From assembly GCA_035527835.1 (NCBI GenBank), contig DATKZS010000196.1:1058-65057 (forward strand): a stretch of DNA of 64,000 bases. The letters are read 5' to 3'. This DNA is from a bacterium (lineage in GTDB: Bacteria; RBG-13-61-14; DATKZS01). Both the position numbers and the translations under genes were made by a program. A model generated the notes under the pieces. That model was not told the DNA's origin, made no database searches, and worked only from the letters and a program-made list of their open reading frames with translations. Below are positions 3,736 through 45,569 of the stretch, one piece after another (position 1 is the stretch's first letter; each line of letters starts with the position of its first letter).

Positions 3736-3787
3736 CTATTTTGGACAAGAGTGACCTCAAACCCCAAACCTCAAACCTCACTCATCC

Positions 3788-8847: not shown

Positions 8848-8875
8848 TTGCTTTTTCCGCGGGAATGACTATAAT
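8848..8875 (+). promoter_or_regulatory. sigma70-type promoter of groESL (TTGCTT-N16-TATAAT)
   Basis: -35 at 8848-8853, -10 TATAAT at 8870-8875, located 9 nt upstream of CIRCE. Confidence 0.7.
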
Positions 8876-8884
8876 GACCACAGA

Positions 8885-8912
8885 TTAGCACTCTACTAGG
8901 GGAGAGTGCTAA
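8885..8912 (+). promoter_or_regulatory. CIRCE operator (HrcA binding site)
   Basis: TTAGCACTCT-N8-AGAGTGCTAA perfect inverted repeat matching the CIRCE consensus TTAGCACTC-N9-GAGTGCTAA, 53 nt upstream of groES. Confidence 0.9.
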
Positions 8913-9299: not shown

Positions 9300-10979
<1,680 letters not shown>

Positions 10980-11006
10980 TTACATCCGCGAAACCTCGCC
11001 AACCAA

Positions 11007-11035
11007 GGCGGGCCCTCGGGCCCGCCTTTTTTTTG
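11007..11035 (+). terminator. rho-independent terminator of groEL
   Basis: GGCGGGCCC-TCG-GGGCCCGCC stem-loop followed by T8. Confidence 0.85.
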
Positions 11036-11527
11036 CGCCGTGTCCACTGCCGTCAAATCCAGGCCACGGAGCCCGTTTCCCCAAAAATTTTTACCCTGTT
11101 TCGTCACGGTGTCCAACAAAATCCGCGGCTTGCCCGCCAGGGCCCCATTTTCTGTGGCCCAAGGGCTGGGACGCGGAGGCACTTTCGCGGCCCAATTCCC
11201 AGGCCCCTGTGGCCTGCGGTCCGGGCCGCAAAAACGCCTCCGTGTCCTAACCATCAGGCCACCCGCGTCCTATAATCCAGGCCACGAAATGACGCACCGA
11301 AACCGGCCCTTAAATTTACTTTTTTGACCCAACCATTCATTTTTCGTAGAGCCATTCTCACCTCGGAAAAATAGTAGCAAGTAGCCAGTAGCCGGTAGCC
11401 AGGGCTCAAACCCCAAACCTCAAACCCCAAACCTCCCTCATGCCCCCCTACTATTCGCAAACTGGTCGCACCGAAAAGGAAAAAAAGTAATGGTCCAAGG
11501 AAAGGGAGTAGCCAGCAGCCAGGGAGA

Positions 11528-11625
11528 AGATAAAAAAGGCTTGAGGTTTGAGGTGTGAGGTTTGAGATTGGAGGCTTAAGATCGGGATGTTAACCACAAA
11601 CCCCAAACCCCAAACCTCAAACCTT
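11528..11625. repeat. octamer-repeat hairpin
   Basis: GGCTTGAGGTTTGAGGTGTGAGGTTTGAG ... AACCACAAACCCCAAACCCCAAACCTCAAACC. Confidence 0.7.
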
Positions 11626-11713
11626 TCTTCCCTCCTTCGTGCCCTTGGTGTCTTCGTGGTTCAATTCTCTTTCCTCAAACCTCAAACCCCAAACCTCAAA
11701 CCTCATTTTCCCC

Positions 11714-11741
11714 TTGACATCGAACCATGAAGGGATATACT
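11714..11741 (+). promoter_or_regulatory. promoter module copy P1 (TTGACA-N16-TATACT)
   Basis: Module CCCTTGACATCGAACCATGAAGGGATATACTGGACCGAGAATCGCGGGAAGG... No obvious downstream gene. Confidence 0.45.
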
Positions 11742-11934
11742 GGACCGAGAATCGCGGGAAGGAGAAGGAAAGGCCGGATGGTGAGCGGAAGAAAATATGA
11801 ACCACAAAGGCACAAAGAACACAAAGAAAAAAACATTCTTCCCCCTTCGTGCCCTTTGTGCCTTGGTGGTTAAATTCTTTCTCTTCCCTGGCTACCGGCT
11901 ACTTGCTACTGGCTACTTTTTCCCCACTTTTTGC

Positions 11935-11962
11935 TTGACATGGAAGCAGGAAGGGATATTCT
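11935..11962 (+). promoter_or_regulatory. promoter module copy P2 (TTGACA-N16-TATTCT)
   Basis: Long form of the module, extending to about 12090 with the conserved tail AATGTTAAATGTTAAGACCTGA. Confidence 0.4.
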
Positions 11963-12279
11963 GGCAGAGAGATTACGGGAGGGGATGGACAGGAAAGGCA
12001 GGATGGGGAATGGGACCGGAAAGCGGCGGGCGCGGGGAAGAATGATGAGGCTAATGTTAAATGTTAAGACCTGACCCCAATCACTTCGTGGTTCAATTCT
12101 CTTTCCTCAAACCTCAAACCTCAAACCTTTCTTCCCCCCTTCGTGCCCTTGGTGTCTTCGTGGTTCAATTCTCTTTCAACAAACCCCCAACCTTTCCTCC
12201 CGGGATATTGATGTCCCCGATCCCGTCCAACCCTTGATACCACAGGGTATCATGGTTGCGGATCATGGGACCATCGTCT

Positions 12280-12951
12280 TTATCCGCCCATGGCCTTGAC
12301 CGCTTCCACGGACCATTGCAGAGCGCCATCAAAGGCCTCGCGGGTCAGGTCCGCGCGCGAGAGGCTAAGGACCAGGGAATGGCTGGGAAGATAAAACATT
12401 ACGGAGATGATGGCCTTCGAGAGCAAGGGCAGGCCCTCACGCACCACCGGCAAGGACAAGCTTGAGTAGTCCTCTGAAACAGGATGGACCGCAAAGATAT
12501 AATTCCCAGCCAGCTCCGTACCGGCCAGTCCGGGAATCTGGGCCAGGTCCTCCTCCGGATCAATCTCATCGTCCTCCCGGCGCCGCTCCAGCTCGATGAT
12601 TTCTTCCCCGTCCGGGTCCTTCACCTCTCCCACGGTCAGATACCAACGCTTGGCCTTTTTGGGCAGGTATTCCAGGACGACCTTGCTCATCCCCGCGCGG
12701 CCTTCCATCCGCCTCTCCTGCGTCCCCTCCACCGGTTTTAAATCATACGCCGCCACGAGCTCGGCCCACAATGGATCGCCGCTGAACAGAACCTGAATCT
12801 TCTCCCGGATACCCATTTGGTTTCGGCCCTCCTTGATTTTTCCTCGCCAGGAATGCAACAACATCCCCTGACCAATGGCGCGGACAATCTTGTCCGCTGA
12901 CAACCTATTGTACATCGCGACCAAAATAACGCCGCCTCGGTGAAACCGCAA
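12280..12951 (-). CDS. hypothetical protein (acidic, no recognisable domain)
   Basis: 223-aa ORF, the only minus-strand ORF in the island. Start is uncertain; internal Met candidates exist. Confidence 0.4.
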   Translation of the reverse strand: MRFHRGGVILVAMYNRLSADKIVRAIGQGMLLHSWRGKIKEGRNQMGIREKIQVLFSGDPLWAELVAAYDLKPVEGTQERRMEGRAGMSKVVLEYLPKKAKRWYLTVGEVKDPDGEEIIELERRREDDEIDPEEDLAQIPGLAGTELAGNYIFAVHPVSEDYSSLSLPVVREGLPLLSKAIISVMFYLPSHSLVLSLSRADLTREAFDGALQWSVEAVKAMGG

Positions 12952-13015
12952 GCTGGAACGCAGTATCCAAACCTCCCCCTCCCCAAGCTGCCGGCTGCTT
13001 TTTTTCTTTTTCCGC

Positions 13016-13043
13016 TTGACATGGAATCAGGACGGGATAGACT
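13016..13043 (+). promoter_or_regulatory. promoter module copy P3 (TTGACA-N16-TAGACT) driving the DUF4258/YgiT pair
   Basis: Same module as at 11714, 11935, 13805 and 14047. 15 nt upstream of ATG 13058. Confidence 0.6.
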
Positions 13044-13057
13044 GGCAGGGGATTACG

Positions 13058-13360
13058 ATGACGATCAAGGAGATTCAAGATAAGATCAAGGCCGGCAGCC
13101 ACCGCTATTCGGACCATGCGGTGAAAAGAATGATTAAAAGGTCAATTGAGGACCATGAGGTTGAGCAGGCTGTTTTAACGGGAGAGATCATAGAAGAGTA
13201 CCCCCGCGATAAGTATTCTCCCAGCTGCCTGGTTTTCGGAACCACGGACAAGGGGAGGCCCTTGCACGTCCAGGTTTCATTTCCGCCCCAAGTTGTTATA
13301 ATAACCGTATATGAGCCGGATCAAGATGAATGGACGGATTATCGGGTCAGGAGGAGGTGA
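13058..13360 (+). CDS. DUF4258-family putative toxin
   Basis: Roughly 100-aa protein with a (S)DHAVKRM motif typical of DUF4258. ATG at 13058. The track start at 13016 is a TTG lying inside the promoter -35. Confidence 0.7.
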   Translation: MTIKEIQDKIKAGSHRYSDHAVKRMIKRSIEDHEVEQAVLTGEIIEEYPRDKYSPSCLVFGTTDKGRPLHVQVSFPPQVVIITVYEPDQDEWTDYRVRRR

Positions 13361-13366
13361 AGCAAC

Positions 13367-13609
13367 ATGAAATGCGTATTCTGCGGCGGCCAAACCAAAA
13401 GCCAAAAAGTGACCTTTGTTGATGACGAGCAAGGCAAATACCTGGCGGTCGAGAACGTACCCGCCCAGGTCTGCACCAGGTGCGGAGAAAAAACCTATGA
13501 CCCCGAAACCACCAGGCTCCTCCTCGACTACGCCCGCAACCGCCGCCACCCCGCCAAAACCTTTAACATGCCCGTCTTCGACTTCGAAAAACCCGGCGAC
13601 AGGCCATGA
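13367..13609 (+). CDS. YgiT-type zinc-finger (MqsA-like) putative antitoxin
   Basis: MKCVFCGG...CTRCGE zinc ribbon of the TIGR03831/YgiT type. Sits 6 nt downstream of the DUF4258 gene. Confidence 0.7.
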   Translation: MKCVFCGGQTKSQKVTFVDDEQGKYLAVENVPAQVCTRCGEKTYDPETTRLLLDYARNRRHPAKTFNMPVFDFEKPGDRP

Positions 13610-13635
13610 GCGGGCCTTAAGGAGTAGCCGGCAGC

Positions 13636-13800
13636 CAGTAGCCAGGGAAAAGCTTAAGACTTGAGGCTTGGGGCTTGAGGCTTGAACCACAAACCCCAAA
13701 CCTCAAACCACAGACCTTCCTTTCTTCCCTTCGTGCCTTCGTGGTTCAATTCCCCCTCTTCAACCACAAACCCCAAACCTCAAACCACAAACCTCATTTT
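13636..13800. repeat. octamer-repeat tracts (CTTGAGG/AAACCACAAACC) in the island
   Basis: Visible period-8 tandem arrays. Short ORFs in the track translate them as KPQTSNL-type peptides. Confidence 0.7.
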
Positions 13801-13804
13801 ATGC

Positions 13805-13832
13805 TTGACATCGAACCAGGAAGGGATATACT
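13805..13832 (+). promoter_or_regulatory. promoter module copy P4 (TTGACA-N16-TATACT)
   Basis: Short form of the module, nearly identical to P1 over about 100 nt. Confidence 0.45.
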
Positions 13833-14046
13833 GGACCGAGAATCGCGGGAAGGGATGGACGGGAAAGACGGGATGGGGAGCGGAAGAAAATATGAACCAC
13901 CATGCCACCAAGATCACGAAGAACAATAAATCATCCTTCTTCCCTTCGTTCCCTTGGACTTCGACGAGCTCAGTCGAGTCGTGCCTTCGTGGTTCAATTC
14001 TCTTTCTTCCAACCCCAAACCTCAAACCACAAACCTCATTTTTCCC

Positions 14047-14074
14047 TTGACATTGAACCCGGAAGGGATATACT
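14047..14074 (+). promoter_or_regulatory. promoter module copy P5 (TTGACA-N16-TATACT) upstream of the AT-rich orphan gene
   Basis: Near-consensus hexamers, followed by a purine-rich leader and then gene 14295. Confidence 0.55.
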
Positions 14075-14294
14075 GGCGGAGAAATTACGGGAGGGAATGG
14101 ACGGGAAAGGCGGGATGGGGAACGGGACCGGAAAGGGGAGCGCGGGGAGAAGAATGAGAAGGATAATGTTAAATGTTAAGACCTGATCCCAATCCCATGC
14201 CAATCCCCATGCCAATCCCCACCACCAATCCCCACCAACAGCCCCTTGAGACCAGAAGCCGCTTTTTCCAAATATAATTAGAGAGGGTAGGAAA

Positions 14295-15497
14295 ATGATG
14301 GCAAAGACTTACTCACCTACAGACATTTTTTTTGATCCATTAGTTGATAGAGATTATTATTACACCATCCTTCCTCTTCTTCCGTTACTATATGATCATA
14401 TTTATATTTATTATCCGAGTGACAATTGGGCCAAGGTTACAAATTACCTTTCTCCGACGACACGTATTAGCTACATTCAAAATCTGAGACATTGGATTAG
14501 CAAAGGAGTAATTATACCAGTCTTAAAAGGTGAATATCCATTGAAAGATGACATAAGAAAAAAGAGATCTGAAATGGATGGGCCTTCCGAAGAGTTTAAA
14601 AATGTTCTGAAAAAATATAGAAAGGACTATCAAGAATCTTTAATAACTCTTGATGTACAATCAACGCTAAGAGGGTATGATGAAGCTAGAAAACTAATTC
14701 AGGAAATTGGGAACGAAGAACAAATCATTAATATGATTAAGCTAGACCTTAATGAAGCTATTCCCGACCTTTTTTATTATTATGCCGGCGGACCAAGAGC
14801 AACCAGTTCTAAATTGCTCCTAGAGATAATCAGTGCATATAAAAATGACGATTGGATTAGAAAAGATAACGAGCTTGGAGAATATTTGCTTCCAAGCACT
14901 GCTGCATACCAATATCATGCCATTACAGATCTTGGTGAAAAAAAGAGAATAGAAGATATATATCATAATACTATTATTGTAAGAGCAGTTGATATTCTTG
15001 ATGAGAAACGACTCAGACGAGATATTTGTGAATGGCCTGAAAAAGATAATATTGAAACATGGCGTGAGTTGGGTCTTCACAGAATATTGAGAGTGTTCTT
15101 ACACTCACAGGCAATTTCAAATAATCCAGATGTACAAGCAAATGAACTAGAATACACAAGCATAGAGCTTGGCAATAGATTAACTAAACTTCGATCACAA
15201 CTTCCAGGTGAATTGGCATCTCTTTTAGTTGACAAAGGATTGTTATCGCAAATTATTATTTGCCTTACTGCGTCACTAGGCATTGTAATTGGTGATGCAA
15301 CATCAACAATTATTGGAGGCTTGGTAACTCTCTGTGTGGGCAATATAGGAAGCAAAGCTATTTTATTCAGCCTAAAGAGGATAAAATGGGATAAATTCAT
15401 TGATGCTATTGAAGATGTTTTAGGCTCCAAGTCAAATAGAACGTTGGAGAGCATTGCACTTGCCTTTGGAGATGTTATAGTCTTAGGAAGAGAGTAG
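14295..15497 (+). CDS. AT-rich orphan protein of unknown family; soluble 300-aa N-terminal region plus two C-terminal TM helices
   Basis: 400-aa uninterrupted ORF whose DNA is strikingly AT-rich relative to everything around it. Shine-Dalgarno GAGGG is 9 nt upstream. C-terminal hydrophobic segments LLSQIIICLTASLGIVIG and IIGGLVTLCVGNIG. Confidence 0.7.
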   Translation: MMAKTYSPTDIFFDPLVDRDYYYTILPLLPLLYDHIYIYYPSDNWAKVTNYLSPTTRISYIQNLRHWISKGVIIPVLKGEYPLKDDIRKKRSEMDGPSEEFKNVLKKYRKDYQESLITLDVQSTLRGYDEARKLIQEIGNEEQIINMIKLDLNEAIPDLFYYYAGGPRATSSKLLLEIISAYKNDDWIRKDNELGEYLLPSTAAYQYHAITDLGEKKRIEDIYHNTIIVRAVDILDEKRLRRDICEWPEKDNIETWRELGLHRILRVFLHSQAISNNPDVQANELEYTSIELGNRLTKLRSQLPGELASLLVDKGLLSQIIICLTASLGIVIGDATSTIIGGLVTLCVGNIGSKAILFSLKRIKWDKFIDAIEDVLGSKSNRTLESIALAFGDVIVLGRE

Positions 15498-15618
15498 AAA
15501 GAAATTATTTATGTTCATCCGGTTAAAGAGTACTTTTGCTGATGAAGATGAAGCAGTCTCATCTTAAAATATTCATTATCACGATATCCATAAGCCTGTC
15601 TTTTCAGTGGGGATTGGG

Positions 15619-15712
15619 GTCATCTATAAAAGTCCCAGTCAAGACAAATCTCTCTTTTCCTGAAGACAAATTTTCTTCATCTGGGAAGGGCTCCCCCCTC
15701 GCCATCGCCGCT
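15619..15712 (+). repeat. X module of the composite 3' block (copy 1)
   Basis: TCATCTATAAAAGTCCCAGTCAAGACAAATCT...CTGGGAAGGGCTCCCCCCTCGCCATCGCCGCTG. Second copy at 17991-18085. Confidence 0.75.
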
Positions 15713-15820
15713 GTGCGGGATCGGGATCGGGGGTCAGGTCTCGACATTAGACATTTGTTTACGTATTCAGGGTATGTTTAATCAACCCTTACCGGGTTGG
15801 GCGGTGGTGATGGGATTGTG

Positions 15821-15880
15821 TCCCAGGGTAGGCCGAAGACGGCCAACCCTGGGCTATTTTATGTTTGCCCTTTCAGGGAG
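15821..15880 (+). repeat. REP-like element, copy 1 (partial: central and right hairpins only)
   Basis: TCCCAGGGTAGGCCGAAGACGGCCAACCCTGGGCTATTTTATGTTTGCCCTTTCAGGG. Confidence 0.75.
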
Positions 15881-15980
15881 TAACAATAATGCCGCGGCCA
15901 GGGGATGCGAATTGTGTGGGTGGGGGTCAGACCCTTGTTTGACTGTTTAACGGGGCGGAATTTTTCAGCCGTCTTTATCT

Positions 15981-16080
15981 CGCCCTTTCAGGGCTGAAAA
16001 GGATATTTGGGGCGGCGATATCCCAGGGTAGGCCGGGGACGGCCAACCCTGGGCTATTTTATGTTTGCCCTTTAAGGGCG
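15981..16080 (+). repeat. REP-like triple-hairpin element, copy 2 (full)
   Basis: CGCCCTTTCAGGGC ... CCCAGGGTAGGCC-loop-GGCCAACCCTGGG ... GCCCTTTMAGGGCG. Lies 3' of gene 14295-15497. Confidence 0.8.
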
Positions 16081-16139
16081 TAACAATAATGCCGCGGCCA
16101 GGGGATGCGAATCGGGAGAGGTTGTGGCGGGCATCAAAG

Positions 16140-16345
16140 AAAGGTTTGTGGTTTGAGGTTTGTGGTTTGTGGTTGAAGAAAGGAGATTGAACCACGAAGG
16201 CACGAAGGTAGGAAAAGAGGTTTGTGGTTTGAGGTTTGTGGTTTGTGGTTTAATAGCCAAACCTCAGACCTCAGACCTCAAGCCTCACACCTCAAACCTC
16301 AATCCTCGCGCCCGGACCTCAAACCCCAAACCTCACACCTCAAAC
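16140..16345. repeat. octamer-repeat tract pair (GGTTTGWGG arms then CCTCAAACC arms)
   Basis: Tandem 8-mers on one strand followed by their complement. Part of composite block I. Confidence 0.75.
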
Positions 16346-16440
16346 CTCATCTCCCTTGATTCATGATGCTTGATCGGGCATAGTTGGGCCATGTGGAGAA
16401 CAGGTTTGTGGTTTGGGGTTTGCGGTTTGTGGTTGAATAA

Positions 16441-17970
16441 ATGAAGATTCGGGATCAGGGCCGGGAATTGGAACGACAAACCACAAACGACAAACTTCGC
16501 GTTGGCCGGGGAGGTGCGGGGATGAAGGAACGGAGATTATGCGTTTTCATCAGCGGCGTGATTGTGGGAGCGGCTTTAGGCGTTGGGCTGGGGTGTCTTC
16601 GTCTGAAGAGCGTGGAGGCGGTGGTTCGGGAGCCGGAGGTCCCCGGGGAGTCACGGCTTGCCTATACCCCGCCTCCGGAGCCGAAGTTTTCCGCGGAGTT
16701 TGCGGCCAAGTACATGCCGGTGCTGCTGAGCATGATACAGCCTCAAATCGAAAAGGTGACGGATGATATTTACGTTGCCATGGGATACGCCATGGGCAAC
16801 GTGACCATGGTGATCACTGACGAGGGCCTGGTGATCATTGACACGACGGAGAGCGAGGACTCGGCGCGGAGGATCATGGCGGACTTCCGCAAGATCACGG
16901 AGAAGCCGGTGCGCTATATCATCTACACCCATTTTCATCCGGACCATAACCAGGGGACCCGGGCTTTTTATTCGGAGGGGGTCGAGATTATCGCGACCAG
17001 GGAATTTTTGAACTGGATCCACGGCGCCAATCCCGGACTGGGCGACCAACATTTTCGGCGCGTTCTGGACATACTGGGAGGGGCCGCGGAGCCGGAGTAT
17101 GCCTTCTCCATGCCTTTTTCCAGCCCCTACCTGAGCGCGGGAAAGGCGCCCGAGGCCATGATGCCGACCATTACCTTTGACGAGCAGTATTCTTTCAGCC
17201 TGGGCGGCAAGCGGTTCGATCTTTTCCACACGCGGGGGGAGACCGAAGACCATTTGGCGGTCTGGATGCCCGAGGAGCGGGCCTTGCACGTCGGAGACCT
17301 TTATTATCATTCCTTCCCCAACCTGGCGGGCATCATGCTGGAGGCCCGGCCGGTCCGCGGCTGGATGGCGTCGCTGTCGCGCTTCATCGCGCTTGGGCCG
17401 GAGTACCTCATCCTCGGCCACACCAAACCTCTTAAAGGCCAAAGCCATATCCAGGAGCACCTGGAGAACTATCTGGCCGCCATCCAGTACGTGCACGATG
17501 AGACTCTCCGATACATCAACAACGGCAAAAGCGTCGAAGAGGCGGTGGCCGGGATCAATCTTCCCGACAGCCTTGCCCGGCTGCCGTATCTGCAGGGGCT
17601 TTACGGCAGGGTGGACTGGTCGGTCCGGGACATCTACCACGCTTATGCCGGGTGGTACGACGGCTGGGGCGCCGGGCTCAATCCCCTGCCCGGGAAGTTC
17701 CGGGCCCGGGAGATCGTCGCGCTGGCCGGAGGAGCCGATAAAATCCTTTCCCGCGCCATCGCGCTCCAAAAGAACGGTGAATATCAGCTCTCCGCGGAAC
17801 TGTGCGACGTCGTCATCGCGGCCAACCCCCAAGACAAGCTGGCCCACACCGTCATGGCCTACGACATGCAATACCTCGCCTTCAGCTCCGACAACCTGCT
17901 CTGCATCGGCGCCTATCTGTCGGCGTACTCCATGCACATGAAGGCCGCAAAAACGGGCGCGGGAACGTGA
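16441..17970 (+). CDS. MBL-fold metallo-hydrolase, alkyl/aryl-sulfatase (SdsA1/BDS1)-like, N-terminal membrane anchor
   Basis: THFHPDH zinc motif, IIDT, and a downstream dimerisation-like region. The start may be the internal MKERRLCVF at 16522. Confidence 0.75.
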   Translation: MKIRDQGRELERQTTNDKLRVGRGGAGMKERRLCVFISGVIVGAALGVGLGCLRLKSVEAVVREPEVPGESRLAYTPPPEPKFSAEFAAKYMPVLLSMIQPQIEKVTDDIYVAMGYAMGNVTMVITDEGLVIIDTTESEDSARRIMADFRKITEKPVRYIIYTHFHPDHNQGTRAFYSEGVEIIATREFLNWIHGANPGLGDQHFRRVLDILGGAAEPEYAFSMPFSSPYLSAGKAPEAMMPTITFDEQYSFSLGGKRFDLFHTRGETEDHLAVWMPEERALHVGDLYYHSFPNLAGIMLEARPVRGWMASLSRFIALGPEYLILGHTKPLKGQSHIQEHLENYLAAIQYVHDETLRYINNGKSVEEAVAGINLPDSLARLPYLQGLYGRVDWSVRDIYHAYAGWYDGWGAGLNPLPGKFRAREIVALAGGADKILSRAIALQKNGEYQLSAELCDVVIAANPQDKLAHTVMAYDMQYLAFSSDNLLCIGAYLSAYSMHMKAAKTGAGT

Positions 17971-17990: not shown

Positions 17991-18085
17991 ATCATCTATA
18001 AAAGTCCCAGTCAAGACAAATCTTTCTTTTCCTGAAGACAAATTTTCTTCGTCTGGGAAGGGCTCCCCCCTCGCCATCGCCGCTG
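17991..18085 (+). repeat. X module of the composite 3' block (copy 2)
   Basis: About 95% identical to 15619-15712. Confidence 0.75.
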
Positions 18086-18738: not shown

Positions 18739-18766
18739 TTGACAATGGAATTGATGCATCTATAAT
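18739..18766 (+). promoter_or_regulatory. consensus sigma70 promoter of the antitoxin-RelE operon (TTGACA-N16-TATAAT)
   Basis: Perfect -35 and -10 hexamers, 55 nt upstream of ATG 18821. Confidence 0.75.
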
Positions 18767-18820: not shown

Positions 18821-19024
18821 ATGACCAATAGCGATGCCACGGCCGAGGTTTTTATCACGGCGCTGAAAGCCTTGCCCAAGACCGAGCGCGACGCGGTCCT
18901 GGTGCGCATCGCCCGGGACAAGGAATTCGCCCGCGACCTCCTCGACCTCGCCGTCATCTCCTCCCGCGGCCACGAACCCTCCCGTCCCTTCCGCGAATAC
19001 CTGGCGGCCAAAAGAAAAAAATGA
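18821..19024 (+). CDS. putative type II antitoxin (partner of RelE/ParE)
   Basis: 67 aa. Overlaps the downstream toxin by 4 nt (ATGA). Preceded by a consensus promoter and a GGAGG Shine-Dalgarno. Confidence 0.55.
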   Translation: MTNSDATAEVFITALKALPKTERDAVLVRIARDKEFARDLLDLAVISSRGHEPSRPFREYLAAKRKK

Positions 19025-19275
19025 ACGCCAAGCGCGCCTACGCCGTCAGCATCAAGCGCTCGGCGGAAAAGGAAATGGACCGCCTGCCCGCGGACATCTT
19101 CGACCGCATCGCCTCCGCAATCCTTGACCTCGAAACCAATCCCCGCCCTCCCGGATGTAAAAAGCTCCGGGGCATCGAAGAATACCGCCTCCGGGTCGGG
19201 CCGTATCGAGTCCTCTATACCATTGACGATCCCGGGAAAAAGGTATTCATCATATCGGTGGGCCATCGCCGGTAA
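19021..19275 (+). CDS. RelE/ParE-family toxin
   Basis: 84 aa. YRVLYTID...KVFIISVGHRR C-terminus characteristic of RelE/ParE. Confidence 0.8.
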   Translation: MNAKRAYAVSIKRSAEKEMDRLPADIFDRIASAILDLETNPRPPGCKKLRGIEEYRLRVGPYRVLYTIDDPGKKVFIISVGHRR

Positions 19276-27849: not shown

Positions 27850-28093
27850 TGGTGTTACACCTCGATCACCCGGCCACCGGCCGGAGGCCGCCTCCCACAT
27901 TCCCCGCGGCCAGATGTAACATATCAGGGCGGGGCGGGGATAATCAAGAAGGGAGCAGGCAAGGCGGGTTGCGCAGTGCAGCCCCGGGAGGGGCGGGCGA
28001 AAGTAGCCCAGCAATTCATTGCTGGGTGGGCCGGCAGCACCGATGCCCCGAGTCCCGGAGGGACGACCGAGTCTTGCTCAACTCATGATCGTC

Positions 28094-45441: not shown

Positions 45442-45524
45442 GTCCCTGCCGGGACTTAAGGGTTTCTTATGTCCACATTCCCAGGAATAAATTCCCGGGC
45501 TATTCTCGGCTGTCCCTCCGGGAC
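45442..45524. repeat. GTCCC-CGGGAC palindromic element, copy 3 (between batB and batC)
   Basis: GTCCCTGCCGGGAC ... CCCAGGAATAAATTCCCGGG ... GTCCCTCCGGGAC. Confidence 0.7.
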
Positions 45525-45569
45525 AAAAAATGTCCGAACCCCGGGTTAATTTATTTCCGTTGCATACCC

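Follow-up and report, generated by a model that had tools for sequence, protein, structure and literature searches.

What is a promoter-like sequence doing five times on one strand of a single intergenic region, how did it come to stand there, and does it serve the genes behind it? These questions are raised by a short module in a 64,000-nucleotide (nt) stretch of the bacterial contig DATKZS010000196.1 (hereafter the window, meaning the whole stretch), where five copies, P1 to P5 in order of position, lie within 2.4 kb downstream of groEL. The best explanation, which we hold to be probable though well short of certain, is that the module is a reused sigma-70 promoter copied by recombination among repeats. 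In a single uncultivated lineage, a strong housekeeping promoter with a short leader would have reached several intergenic sites through duplication and homologous or microhomology-mediated recombination among the surrounding heptamer arrays, hairpins and purine-rich stretches, and each landed copy would supply transcription to the sequence downstream of it. P3 would drive a DUF4258/MqsA-like operon and P5 a low-GC orphan gene, while the genes driven on related contigs would be one of 27% GC, one for a Zn-dependent dehydrogenase and an FRG-domain defence candidate; P1 and P4 would be the upstream members of tandem promoter pairs, reading into a hairpin, and P2 a copy left without a gene.

The whole window was scanned with a degenerate 31-nt pattern that comprises the -35 hexamer, the spacer and the -10 hexamer (CTTGACATNGAANCNGGANGGGATANNCTGG; up to three mismatches). 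Five sites were found, all on the plus strand (Table 1), and their -35 hexamers start exactly where the initial annotation had placed the five cores. The consensus is CTTGACAT-N-GAA..GGGATA..CTGG (TTGACA-N16-TATACT), and the expectation by chance is 0.00 matches (none in 100 dinucleotide-preserving shuffles). With a profile of all known copies, nhmmer (filters off) detected no further or more diverged copy in the window and passed over even the two promoter-like sites located behind heptamer arrays at 16358 and 18739, and the family is therefore discrete; across all sequence examined the profile found only nine copies, each at E <= 1e-15.

Each copy carries, as had been proposed, a near-consensus -35/-10 pair: the hexamers match the consensus at 11 of 12 positions in P1, P4 and P5 and at 10 of 12 in P2 and P3, and the spacer measures 16 nt throughout. 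Multiple alignments delimit a common unit of ~75 nt, to which the 100-170 bp once taken to be common to all copies must be cut back, and which consists of an A/T-rich flank, the 31-nt core and a leader of ~35 nt. The flank has two forms, either CAAACCY heptamers followed by CATTTT or, as in P2, GGCTACY heptamers followed by a T-rich block, and the spacer of the core is conserved as GGAAGGGA. When the five window copies are compared in pairs, their identity averages 88.7% over the core, 66.7% over the 12 nt upstream and 52% over the 31 nt downstream. Transcription would be predicted to start near 11748 (P1), 11969 (P2), 13050 (P3), 13839 (P4) and 14081 (P5). Canonical sigma-70 promoters are evidently in use in this organism, to judge from two other promoters of the window that are near or at consensus. 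The groES gene is preceded by TTGCTT-N16-TATAAT and then by a CIRCE-like inverted repeat (TTAGCACTCT-N8-AGAGTGCTAA; window 8848-8912), which implies that groES is probably under HrcA-type heat-shock control. A perfect TTGACA-N16-TATAAT at 18739-18766, right after a CAAACCY array, stands upstream of a second toxin-antitoxin (TA) pair (18822-19275), made up of a 67-aa antitoxin and a ParE-family toxin; the layout of this promoter is that of the module, with a different spacer.

Copies outside the window were sought in metagenomes with the hexamers fixed and exact matches required, so the census of copies is a lower bound; some contigs are evidently missing from the collection as well, because it gave none of the copies in the window itself. 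Four contigs (L001 to L004) were matched. Three of them (L001, L003 and L004) bear Ga03073xx names, as do the contigs on which the window locus was itself recovered (L008 and L009), and L004 and L009 share both a JGI sample and repeat families. All four have the window's heptamer arrays and hairpin repeats, which are absent from 80 loci of other phyla fetched by GroEL. On L001 the copy is intergenic and directed toward the start of a 286-aa, 27%-GC gene; on L004 it joins another repeat, after which comes an FRG-domain gene (46% GC; PADLOC candidate system PDC-S15); on L003 it is joined directly to a 68%-GC Zn-dehydrogenase gene; and on L002 it runs into AGAAGCC heptamers. Five of the nine copies are directed toward the 5' end of a co-oriented gene, two toward another copy, one toward a convergent gene and one off the end of its contig. 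The five co-oriented downstream genes (the TA operon at P3, the orphan at P5, the L001 gene, the FRG/PDC-S15 gene of L004 and the dehydrogenase of L003) are unrelated, having different Pfam families or none, and three of the five are low in GC (27-46% vs a background of 57-63%). One promoter is reused in front of unrelated genes, and the test that the initial annotation had named, a search for further copies upstream of acquired genes, came out in its favour: the copies on related contigs are intergenic, and three of the four face gene 5' ends.

Two of these downstream partners are in the window itself. P3 adjoins the DUF4258/MqsA-like operon and is placed to drive it, as had been suggested. 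It shares with the other copies only the promoter plus ~8-15 nt beyond, and the DUF4258 ATG is at 13058, 14 nt past the -10 hexamer. In the closest DUF4258 operon elsewhere (L091; 79% amino-acid identity) the upstream region is unrelated, with a promoter-like TTGACA-N17-TAGGGT of its own ~110 nt upstream, and homology begins only at the ATG; the union of module and operon thus took place in the lineage of the window, and the reading that it is the native promoter of this TA operon was rejected. P5, likewise as first noted, precedes the AT-rich orphan. It is the sole good promoter candidate upstream of this 35%-GC gene, and no terminator-like site was found between the two.

The module belongs to a repeat-rich island of 5.5 kb (11000-16500), located between groEL and a metallo-beta-lactamase/alkyl-sulfatase gene, in which at least six repeat families form a mosaic. 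Within it, two blocks of ~575 bp, the one holding P1 and P2 and the other P4 and P5, lie in direct orientation around a 1.5-kb segment with a 178-aa gene on the minus strand and the P3-DUF4258/MqsA-like operon. The first reads, in order, AGTAGCC array, heptamer hairpin, hairpin 3' arm, CAAACCY array, P1, hairpin, P2 and tail. The blocks are 75-86% identical (82% over 279 nt and 86% over 161 nt), and one heptamer segment inside them has been replaced. Compared with the remaining window copies, P3 shows 58-63% identity across 74 nt but 84-87% across the core. The five occurrences that had been counted are thus confirmed as sites but are not five independent events: they reduce to one duplicated two-module block plus P3, which is a separate, more diverged member.

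The island is still being rearranged. Assemblies of the same population differ by a 77-bp segment that is present in the window and in L006 and absent in L005 (ENA ERZ27256827) and L092 (JGI 3300031539), the indel lying at 13718-13794 of the window (equivalently 13686-13762), at 656-692 of L005 and at 670-706 of L092. The missing 77 bp consist of a heptamer array and a hairpin 3' arm, between two 37-nt direct heptamer arrays upstream of P4. This indel is the only polymorphism seen, and it is beside P4 and not of the module itself. Material of the same kind is scattered over the window, where 19 heptanucleotide arrays of at least four units (CAAACCY and its complement, AGTAGCC and others) occupy intergenic sites, for example at 3754, 11405, 11541, 11673, 11888, 16142-16402, 18418, 18696, 23412 and 26631; the arrays are often paired in inverted orientation, forming hairpins. 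The 77-bp segment has a 90% complementary inverted copy at 16142-16218. This 77-nt inverted pair encloses 2.35 kb with P4, P5, the orphan gene and further repeats.

Outside this lineage the module and its surroundings were not encountered. Searches of 185,579 species-representative genomes (one per species) with the 31-nt pattern, of viral contigs with the pattern and the tail, and of plasmids and phages with the composite block (blastn) all came back empty. The best GroEL match is 75% among the representative genomes, and in the protein collection the matches reach 95% (a short contig), 87% and 84%; a match of 80% is named Deltaproteobacteria bacterium RBG_13_61_14, and the GroEL groups with deltaproteobacteria-like sequences. 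In the two relatives with GroEL 87% and 84% identical, one of which has partly conserved synteny upstream, the next gene begins 120-150 nt past groEL (L093 11647-11796; L094 11599-11719), and no heptamer arrays, hairpins or modules were found in the 21 kb of each. Since these, the nearest relatives found, are without island, arrays and modules, the 5.5-kb island and its repeat kit are recent and lineage-specific.

Beyond the common unit the copies part ways in at least six different continuations, the nine copies having six downstream junctions and two upstream types. The leader reads GAGATTACGGGAGGG.ATGGAC.GGAAAGG in P2, P5, L001, L002 and L004 and CCGAGAATCGCGGGAAGG in P1 and P4, and the short 5' leader shared between copies is GATTACGGGAGGG.ATGGA. 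The 52-nt string that the initial annotation had quoted for the module fits P1 and P4, and not P2, P5 and P3, which have another +1 region (CTGGCRGAGAGATTACGGGAGGG). The long forms P2, P5 and L001 measure 141, 141 and 142 nt from CTTGACA to GACCTGA and have a variable G/A-rich middle followed by a conserved 45-nt end (AAGAATGA...ATAATGTTAAATGTTAAGACCTGAYCCCAAT); the string said to close the long forms was indeed recovered in P2 and P5 (AATGTTAAATGTTAAGACCTGA; 12053-12074 and 14165-14186). The short forms P1 and P4 run instead into a ~90-nt hairpin repeat (GAACCACNAAGGCAC...GTGCCTTNGTGGTTC), which also occurs solo, just after the stop codons of ordinary genes.

The constant length of the long forms, with conserved ends and a variable middle, would fit a Correia-like miniature inverted-repeat transposable element (MITE) with an outward or internal promoter, moved in trans by a transposase encoded elsewhere. 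A weak resemblance of the left end, CTTGACATTGAAC, to the reverse-complemented tail, CTTAACATTTAAC, points the same way (p = 0.04 in P5 and p = 0.09 in L001), as does an inverted tail-like copy that brackets the orphan gene: the long-form tail of P5 (AATGTTAAATGTTAAGACCTGAYCCC; 14165-14190, plus strand) has a diverged inverted copy beyond the orphan (15730-15755, minus strand; 22 of 26 matches), so that the gene is enclosed by a 26-nt inverted tail pair, for which ~0.005 chance matches are expected in the window by our own estimate (at most four mismatches in 22 nt). No inverted partner was found for the tails of P2 or L001. In P2, however, end-to-end alignment (8-13 nt at best) is at chance (p = 0.6), and no inverted repeat between long-form ends passes the repeat finder. 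The flanks differ and contain no direct repeat or target-site duplication, the conserved sequence extends past both putative ends, and six of the nine copies are without the tail, ending at different points. No transposase or integrase was found among the called genes of the 21-kb locus, and there were no plasmid, phage or viral matches. A MITE is thus decidedly improbable, and the mobile cassette of the initial annotation finds no terminal inverted repeats, target duplication, fixed 3' end or nearby transposase or integrase to lean on. Because the junctions vary, the hallmarks of transposition are missing and a 77-bp indel lies between heptamer arrays, the promoter would have spread by recombination and not by transposition, a route that we infer from the sequences.

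The same leaders and ends could be read as those of small-RNA genes, whose promoter would serve a purine-rich, GGA-dense transcript. Such an RNA might titrate an RNA-binding protein in the manner of CsrB/RsmZ or pair with pyrimidine-rich heptamer repeats in neighbouring transcripts, the hairpin setting its 3' end in the short forms. This would account for P1, P2 and P4, which have no downstream gene, for the promoter-leader-hairpin layout of P1 and P4, and for the equal length of the three long forms with their conserved 5' and 3' blocks; moreover, purines make up 64-75% of the first 110 transcribed nt, which contain 5-11 GGA motifs. The predicted P1 transcript is very stable (minimum free energy -55.4 kcal/mol; z = -5.3), yet the hairpin accounts for all of this, and with the hairpin repeat set aside the leaders are no more stable than shuffles (z = -1.8 to +0.9). 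The hairpin repeat, moreover, is not specific to the unit, since it also follows ordinary genes on its own, and in P3 and L003 the module is fused directly to coding genes. No Rfam family matched the leader even at E <= 10, and the region 11300-14350 gave only sub-threshold, generic hairpin-type matches. In the consensus fold of the long form the covariation term is +0.23 kcal/mol and two of 25 pairs show double changes, figures from only three sequences with little power; no csrA was found in the sequence examined, which is uninformative. Rfam, the stability scores and covariation (three to five sequences, with little power) thus give no support to the small-RNA genes that had been suggested for the copies without a gene, and we consider them quite unlikely. 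Canonical G-quadruplex motifs occur in the P4 (13847-13878) and P5 (14089-14126) leaders, two of the six plus-strand motifs of the window, on the non-template strand and a short way past the predicted start sites. A G-quadruplex leader as a feature of the family was rejected, the motifs being absent in P1, P2, L001 and L004.

Could the leader encode a peptide? The ATGGAC of the leader opens a 29-aa open reading frame in P2 and P5 (MDGKGGMGNGTGKGSAGRRMRRIMLNVKT), intact in both and placed after GGGAGGG, whose translation might regulate the downstream gene, and the dehydrogenase frame of L003 is continuous with this ATG. Between P2 and P5, however, there are eight non-synonymous differences to one synonymous; a length difference of 1 nt shifts the frame in L001 to an unrelated C-terminus; L002 has a stop after nine codons, and P1 has no ATG. 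The GGAGG ends only 2 nt before the ATG, and a profile of the peptides, run against 5.8 billion protein clusters, recovered the locus of the window and nothing else. A leader peptide is hardly credible, and the small reading frame is rejected because of the frame breaks and the substitution pattern.

Several observations weigh against a promoter that is reused because it works. The module has the anatomy of a strong sigma-70-type promoter, but its activity and start sites are deduced from the consensus only. All seven variable core sites are outside the -35 hexamer and positions 1, 2, 5 and 6 of the -10 hexamer, yet this test (P = 0.044) is weak, the five copies being few and non-independent, and the four metagenome copies, found with a pattern that fixes the hexamers, are unusable for judging hexamer conservation. 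In the comparison of P2 with P5, the whole 161-nt long form (86%) is kept as well as the core (87%), and conservation beyond the need of a bare promoter is seen in the spacer, in the initial ~35 transcribed nt and in the long form's 45-nt 3' block. P1, P2 and P4 have no gene to drive; P2, with no co-oriented gene downstream, points at the 3' end of the 178-aa gene. The predicted P3 leader of ~8 nt has no ribosome-binding site, an arrangement that would be inefficient in many bacteria, although it is plausibly workable in bacteria that translate short-leadered messages. Lastly, L001 to L004 come from the same or closely related organisms and may or may not belong to the genome of the window.

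These points bear on a further alternative, in which a sequence that merely resembles a promoter happened to be amplified by the duplication and recombination that also spread heptamers and hairpins; the module would then be inert repeat DNA, its copies too young to have decayed and mostly unused. The derivation of the five window copies from one duplicated block and one extra, the polymorphic mosaic around them, a core that diverges between P2 and P5 as fast as its surroundings and the lack of a gene at three of the five are all in keeping with it. A promoter at 11 of 12 consensus positions would, however, very likely bind RNA polymerase whether used or not; across subfamilies the core is kept at 88.7% and the flanks at 52-67%; the variable sites avoid the key hexamer positions; and all five gene-proximal copies point at a gene start. 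Inert repeat DNA is therefore regarded as unlikely, and promoter reuse through recombination is retained.

Promoter reuse of this kind has precedents, and the module is a new example of it, not a new category of element. Putative mobile promoters (PMPs) number more than 4,000 families of near-identical upstream sequence before unrelated genes, mostly without a recognisable vehicle or known mode of movement (Matus-Garcia, Nijveen and van Passel 2012; summarised in PMC3575422). With these and the promoter-bearing Correia elements on record (PMC3575422 and PMC2649163), the initial view of a promoter cassette as something unusual is an overstatement. The module resembles the PMPs as a non-coding, promoter-bearing repeat before non-homologous genes without a mobile element. 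Their definition applies to single complete genomes and asks for at least 80% identity over at least 50 nt in the -150 to -50 region (PMC3575422). Such identity is reached over 74 nt by P5/L004 (86%), P2/L001 (82%) and P5/P2 (84%), copies that may or may not lie in one genome, whereas the gene-proximal window pair P3/P5 (only 62% over 74 nt) reaches it only over the 31-nt core. The module also differs from PMPs in sitting in an unusually dense mosaic of heptamers and hairpins.

The Correia elements of Neisseria are intergenic, ~100-150 bp long, carry sigma-70 promoters, alter the expression of neighbours and have leaders that can be processed (PMC2649163). As a short intergenic repeat with a sigma-70 promoter the module is like them; unlike these transposon-like elements with terminal inverted repeats, it shows neither significant terminal inverted repeats nor a target duplication, and its 3' end varies. 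It has no sequence similarity to the Correia family and is not a member of it. Bacterial interspersed mosaic elements (BIMEs), REPs and REPINs are lineage-specific, numerous intergenic mosaics of short palindromes and spacer motifs, REPs and REPINs being tied to the RAYT transposase. REP and REPIN units are not known to carry a complete consensus promoter. The likeness lies in variable combinations drawn from a small library of motifs; here, in contrast, no RAYT-like gene was seen, and the building blocks are 7-nt tandem arrays and ~90-nt hairpins. Two papers mention REPINs (PMC3575422, PMC8049555). Heptanucleotide intergenic repeats are represented by the cyanobacterial STRR and the TAACTGA of Beggiatoaceae (PMC4679880) and by the G-rich heptamers of Xanthomonas and Nostoc (PMC4692102). 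Similarly, the module is preceded by three to five tandem heptamers (CAAACCY or GGCTACY), and the long form is followed by CCCCAAT-type repeats, but the described heptamers are from other phyla, have other units and are none of them described as the flank of a reused promoter.

Integron arrays, too, have small accessory genes split by imperfect palindromic repeats at one hot spot, but they share one Pc promoter, whereas here each unit has its own. No integrase or recombinase domain was found in the called genes of the 21-kb locus or in the scanned open reading frames, and no attI site. An integron was rejected for want of an integrase and because the repeats, as read from the sequence, have no RYYYAAC...GTTRRRY attC cores. 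An integron-like outcome without an integrase is nonetheless conceivable, in which the module, the heptamer hairpins and the 26-nt tail form a homology-based kit for the capture and expression of foreign genes. The intergenic repeats would then be shared landing-pad homology, through which hot spots, for example the one downstream of groESL, might take in, express and exchange incoming promoterless genes, the cargo being defence candidates, TA pairs and low-GC orphans. The blocks that flank the TA segment, the inverted tails that bracket the orphan and the absence of the island in relatives fit such a kit without demanding it, and we consider it improbable.

Should the reused promoter be active, an uncultivated lineage would be recycling one strong promoter for acquired, compositionally foreign genes (TA, defence candidates) without a recognisable mobile element, and a clean, testable case would be added to poorly understood promoter reuse. 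The 31-nt core could be used as a marker for accessory-gene hot spots in this lineage and is a candidate strong promoter for genetic tools.

Table 1. Module copies, composite blocks, predicted transcripts and adjoining genes (window coordinates)
Feature	Position	Strand	Remarks
Composite block copy 1 (P1+P2)	11500-12082	+	Colinear with copy 2
Composite block copy 2 (P4+P5)	13623-14194	+	Colinear with copy 1
P1 promoter core, short form	11713-11743	+	-35 TTGACA 11714-11719; -10 TATACT 11736-11741
P2 promoter core, long form	11934-11964	+	-35 11935-11940; -10 TATTCT 11957-11962
P3 promoter core	13015-13045	+	-35 13016-13021; -10 TAGACT 13038-13043
P4 promoter core, short form	13804-13834	+	-35 13805-13810; -10 TATACT 13827-13832
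P5 promoter core, long form	14046-14076	+	-35 14047-14052; -10 TATACT 14069-14074
P1 predicted transcript	11748-11885	+	~45-nt purine-rich leader; hairpin repeat GAACCACAAAGGCAC...GTGCCTTGGTGGTT at ~11793-11877
P2 predicted leader	11969-12078	+	Starts GAGATTACGGGAGGGGATGGAC; G/A-rich stretch; tail AATGTTAAATGTTAAGACCTGACCCC at 12053-12078
P4 predicted transcript	13839-14005	+	Purine-rich leader (G-tract 13847-13878); degenerate hairpin repeat
P5 predicted leader	14081-14294	+	Purine-rich stretch; tail 14165-14190; CCAATCCCC repeats; AT-rich ribosome-binding region of orphan
178-aa gene	12280-12816	-	No Pfam or PADLOC match; convergent with P2, divergent from P3
DUF4258 toxin-like gene	13058-13360	+	Pfam PF14076, 6e-25
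MqsA/YgiT-like antitoxin gene	13367-13609	+	PF15731, 3e-5, below its cut-off
400-aa orphan gene	14295-15497	+	35% GC vs 62% for the window; no Pfam or PADLOC match

Further features were noted around the island. At its left edge, a groEL terminator (11005-11028, plus a T-run) is followed at 11040-11300 by repeated GTGTCC...CAGGCCAC motifs, with a TATAAT at ~11271. Between the heptamer arrays upstream of P1 is a non-coding block, CATGCYCCCCTAYTA...TGGTCGCACC..AGGAAAAAAAGTAATG (11436-11495), and the CATGCYCCCCTAYTA block recurs on the minus strand of L003 at ~10270-10330, in the same relative position upstream of the module copy. A direct repeat of ~94 nt (TCATCTATAAAAGTCCCAGTCAAGACAAATCT...CTCGCCATCGCCGCTG) flanks the metallo-beta-lactamase gene at ~15620-15713 and 17992-18085, its first copy lying just past the orphan; nearby are a 92-nt repeat at 15821 and 16021 and GGGGTCAGACCCTTGTTTGAC at ~15925, 18139 and 18166. 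Elsewhere in the window, the Rfam family Acido-Lenti-1 was matched above its gathering score at 45480-45525 on the plus strand and at 27980-28026 on the minus strand (41.5 and 41.3 bits vs 37).

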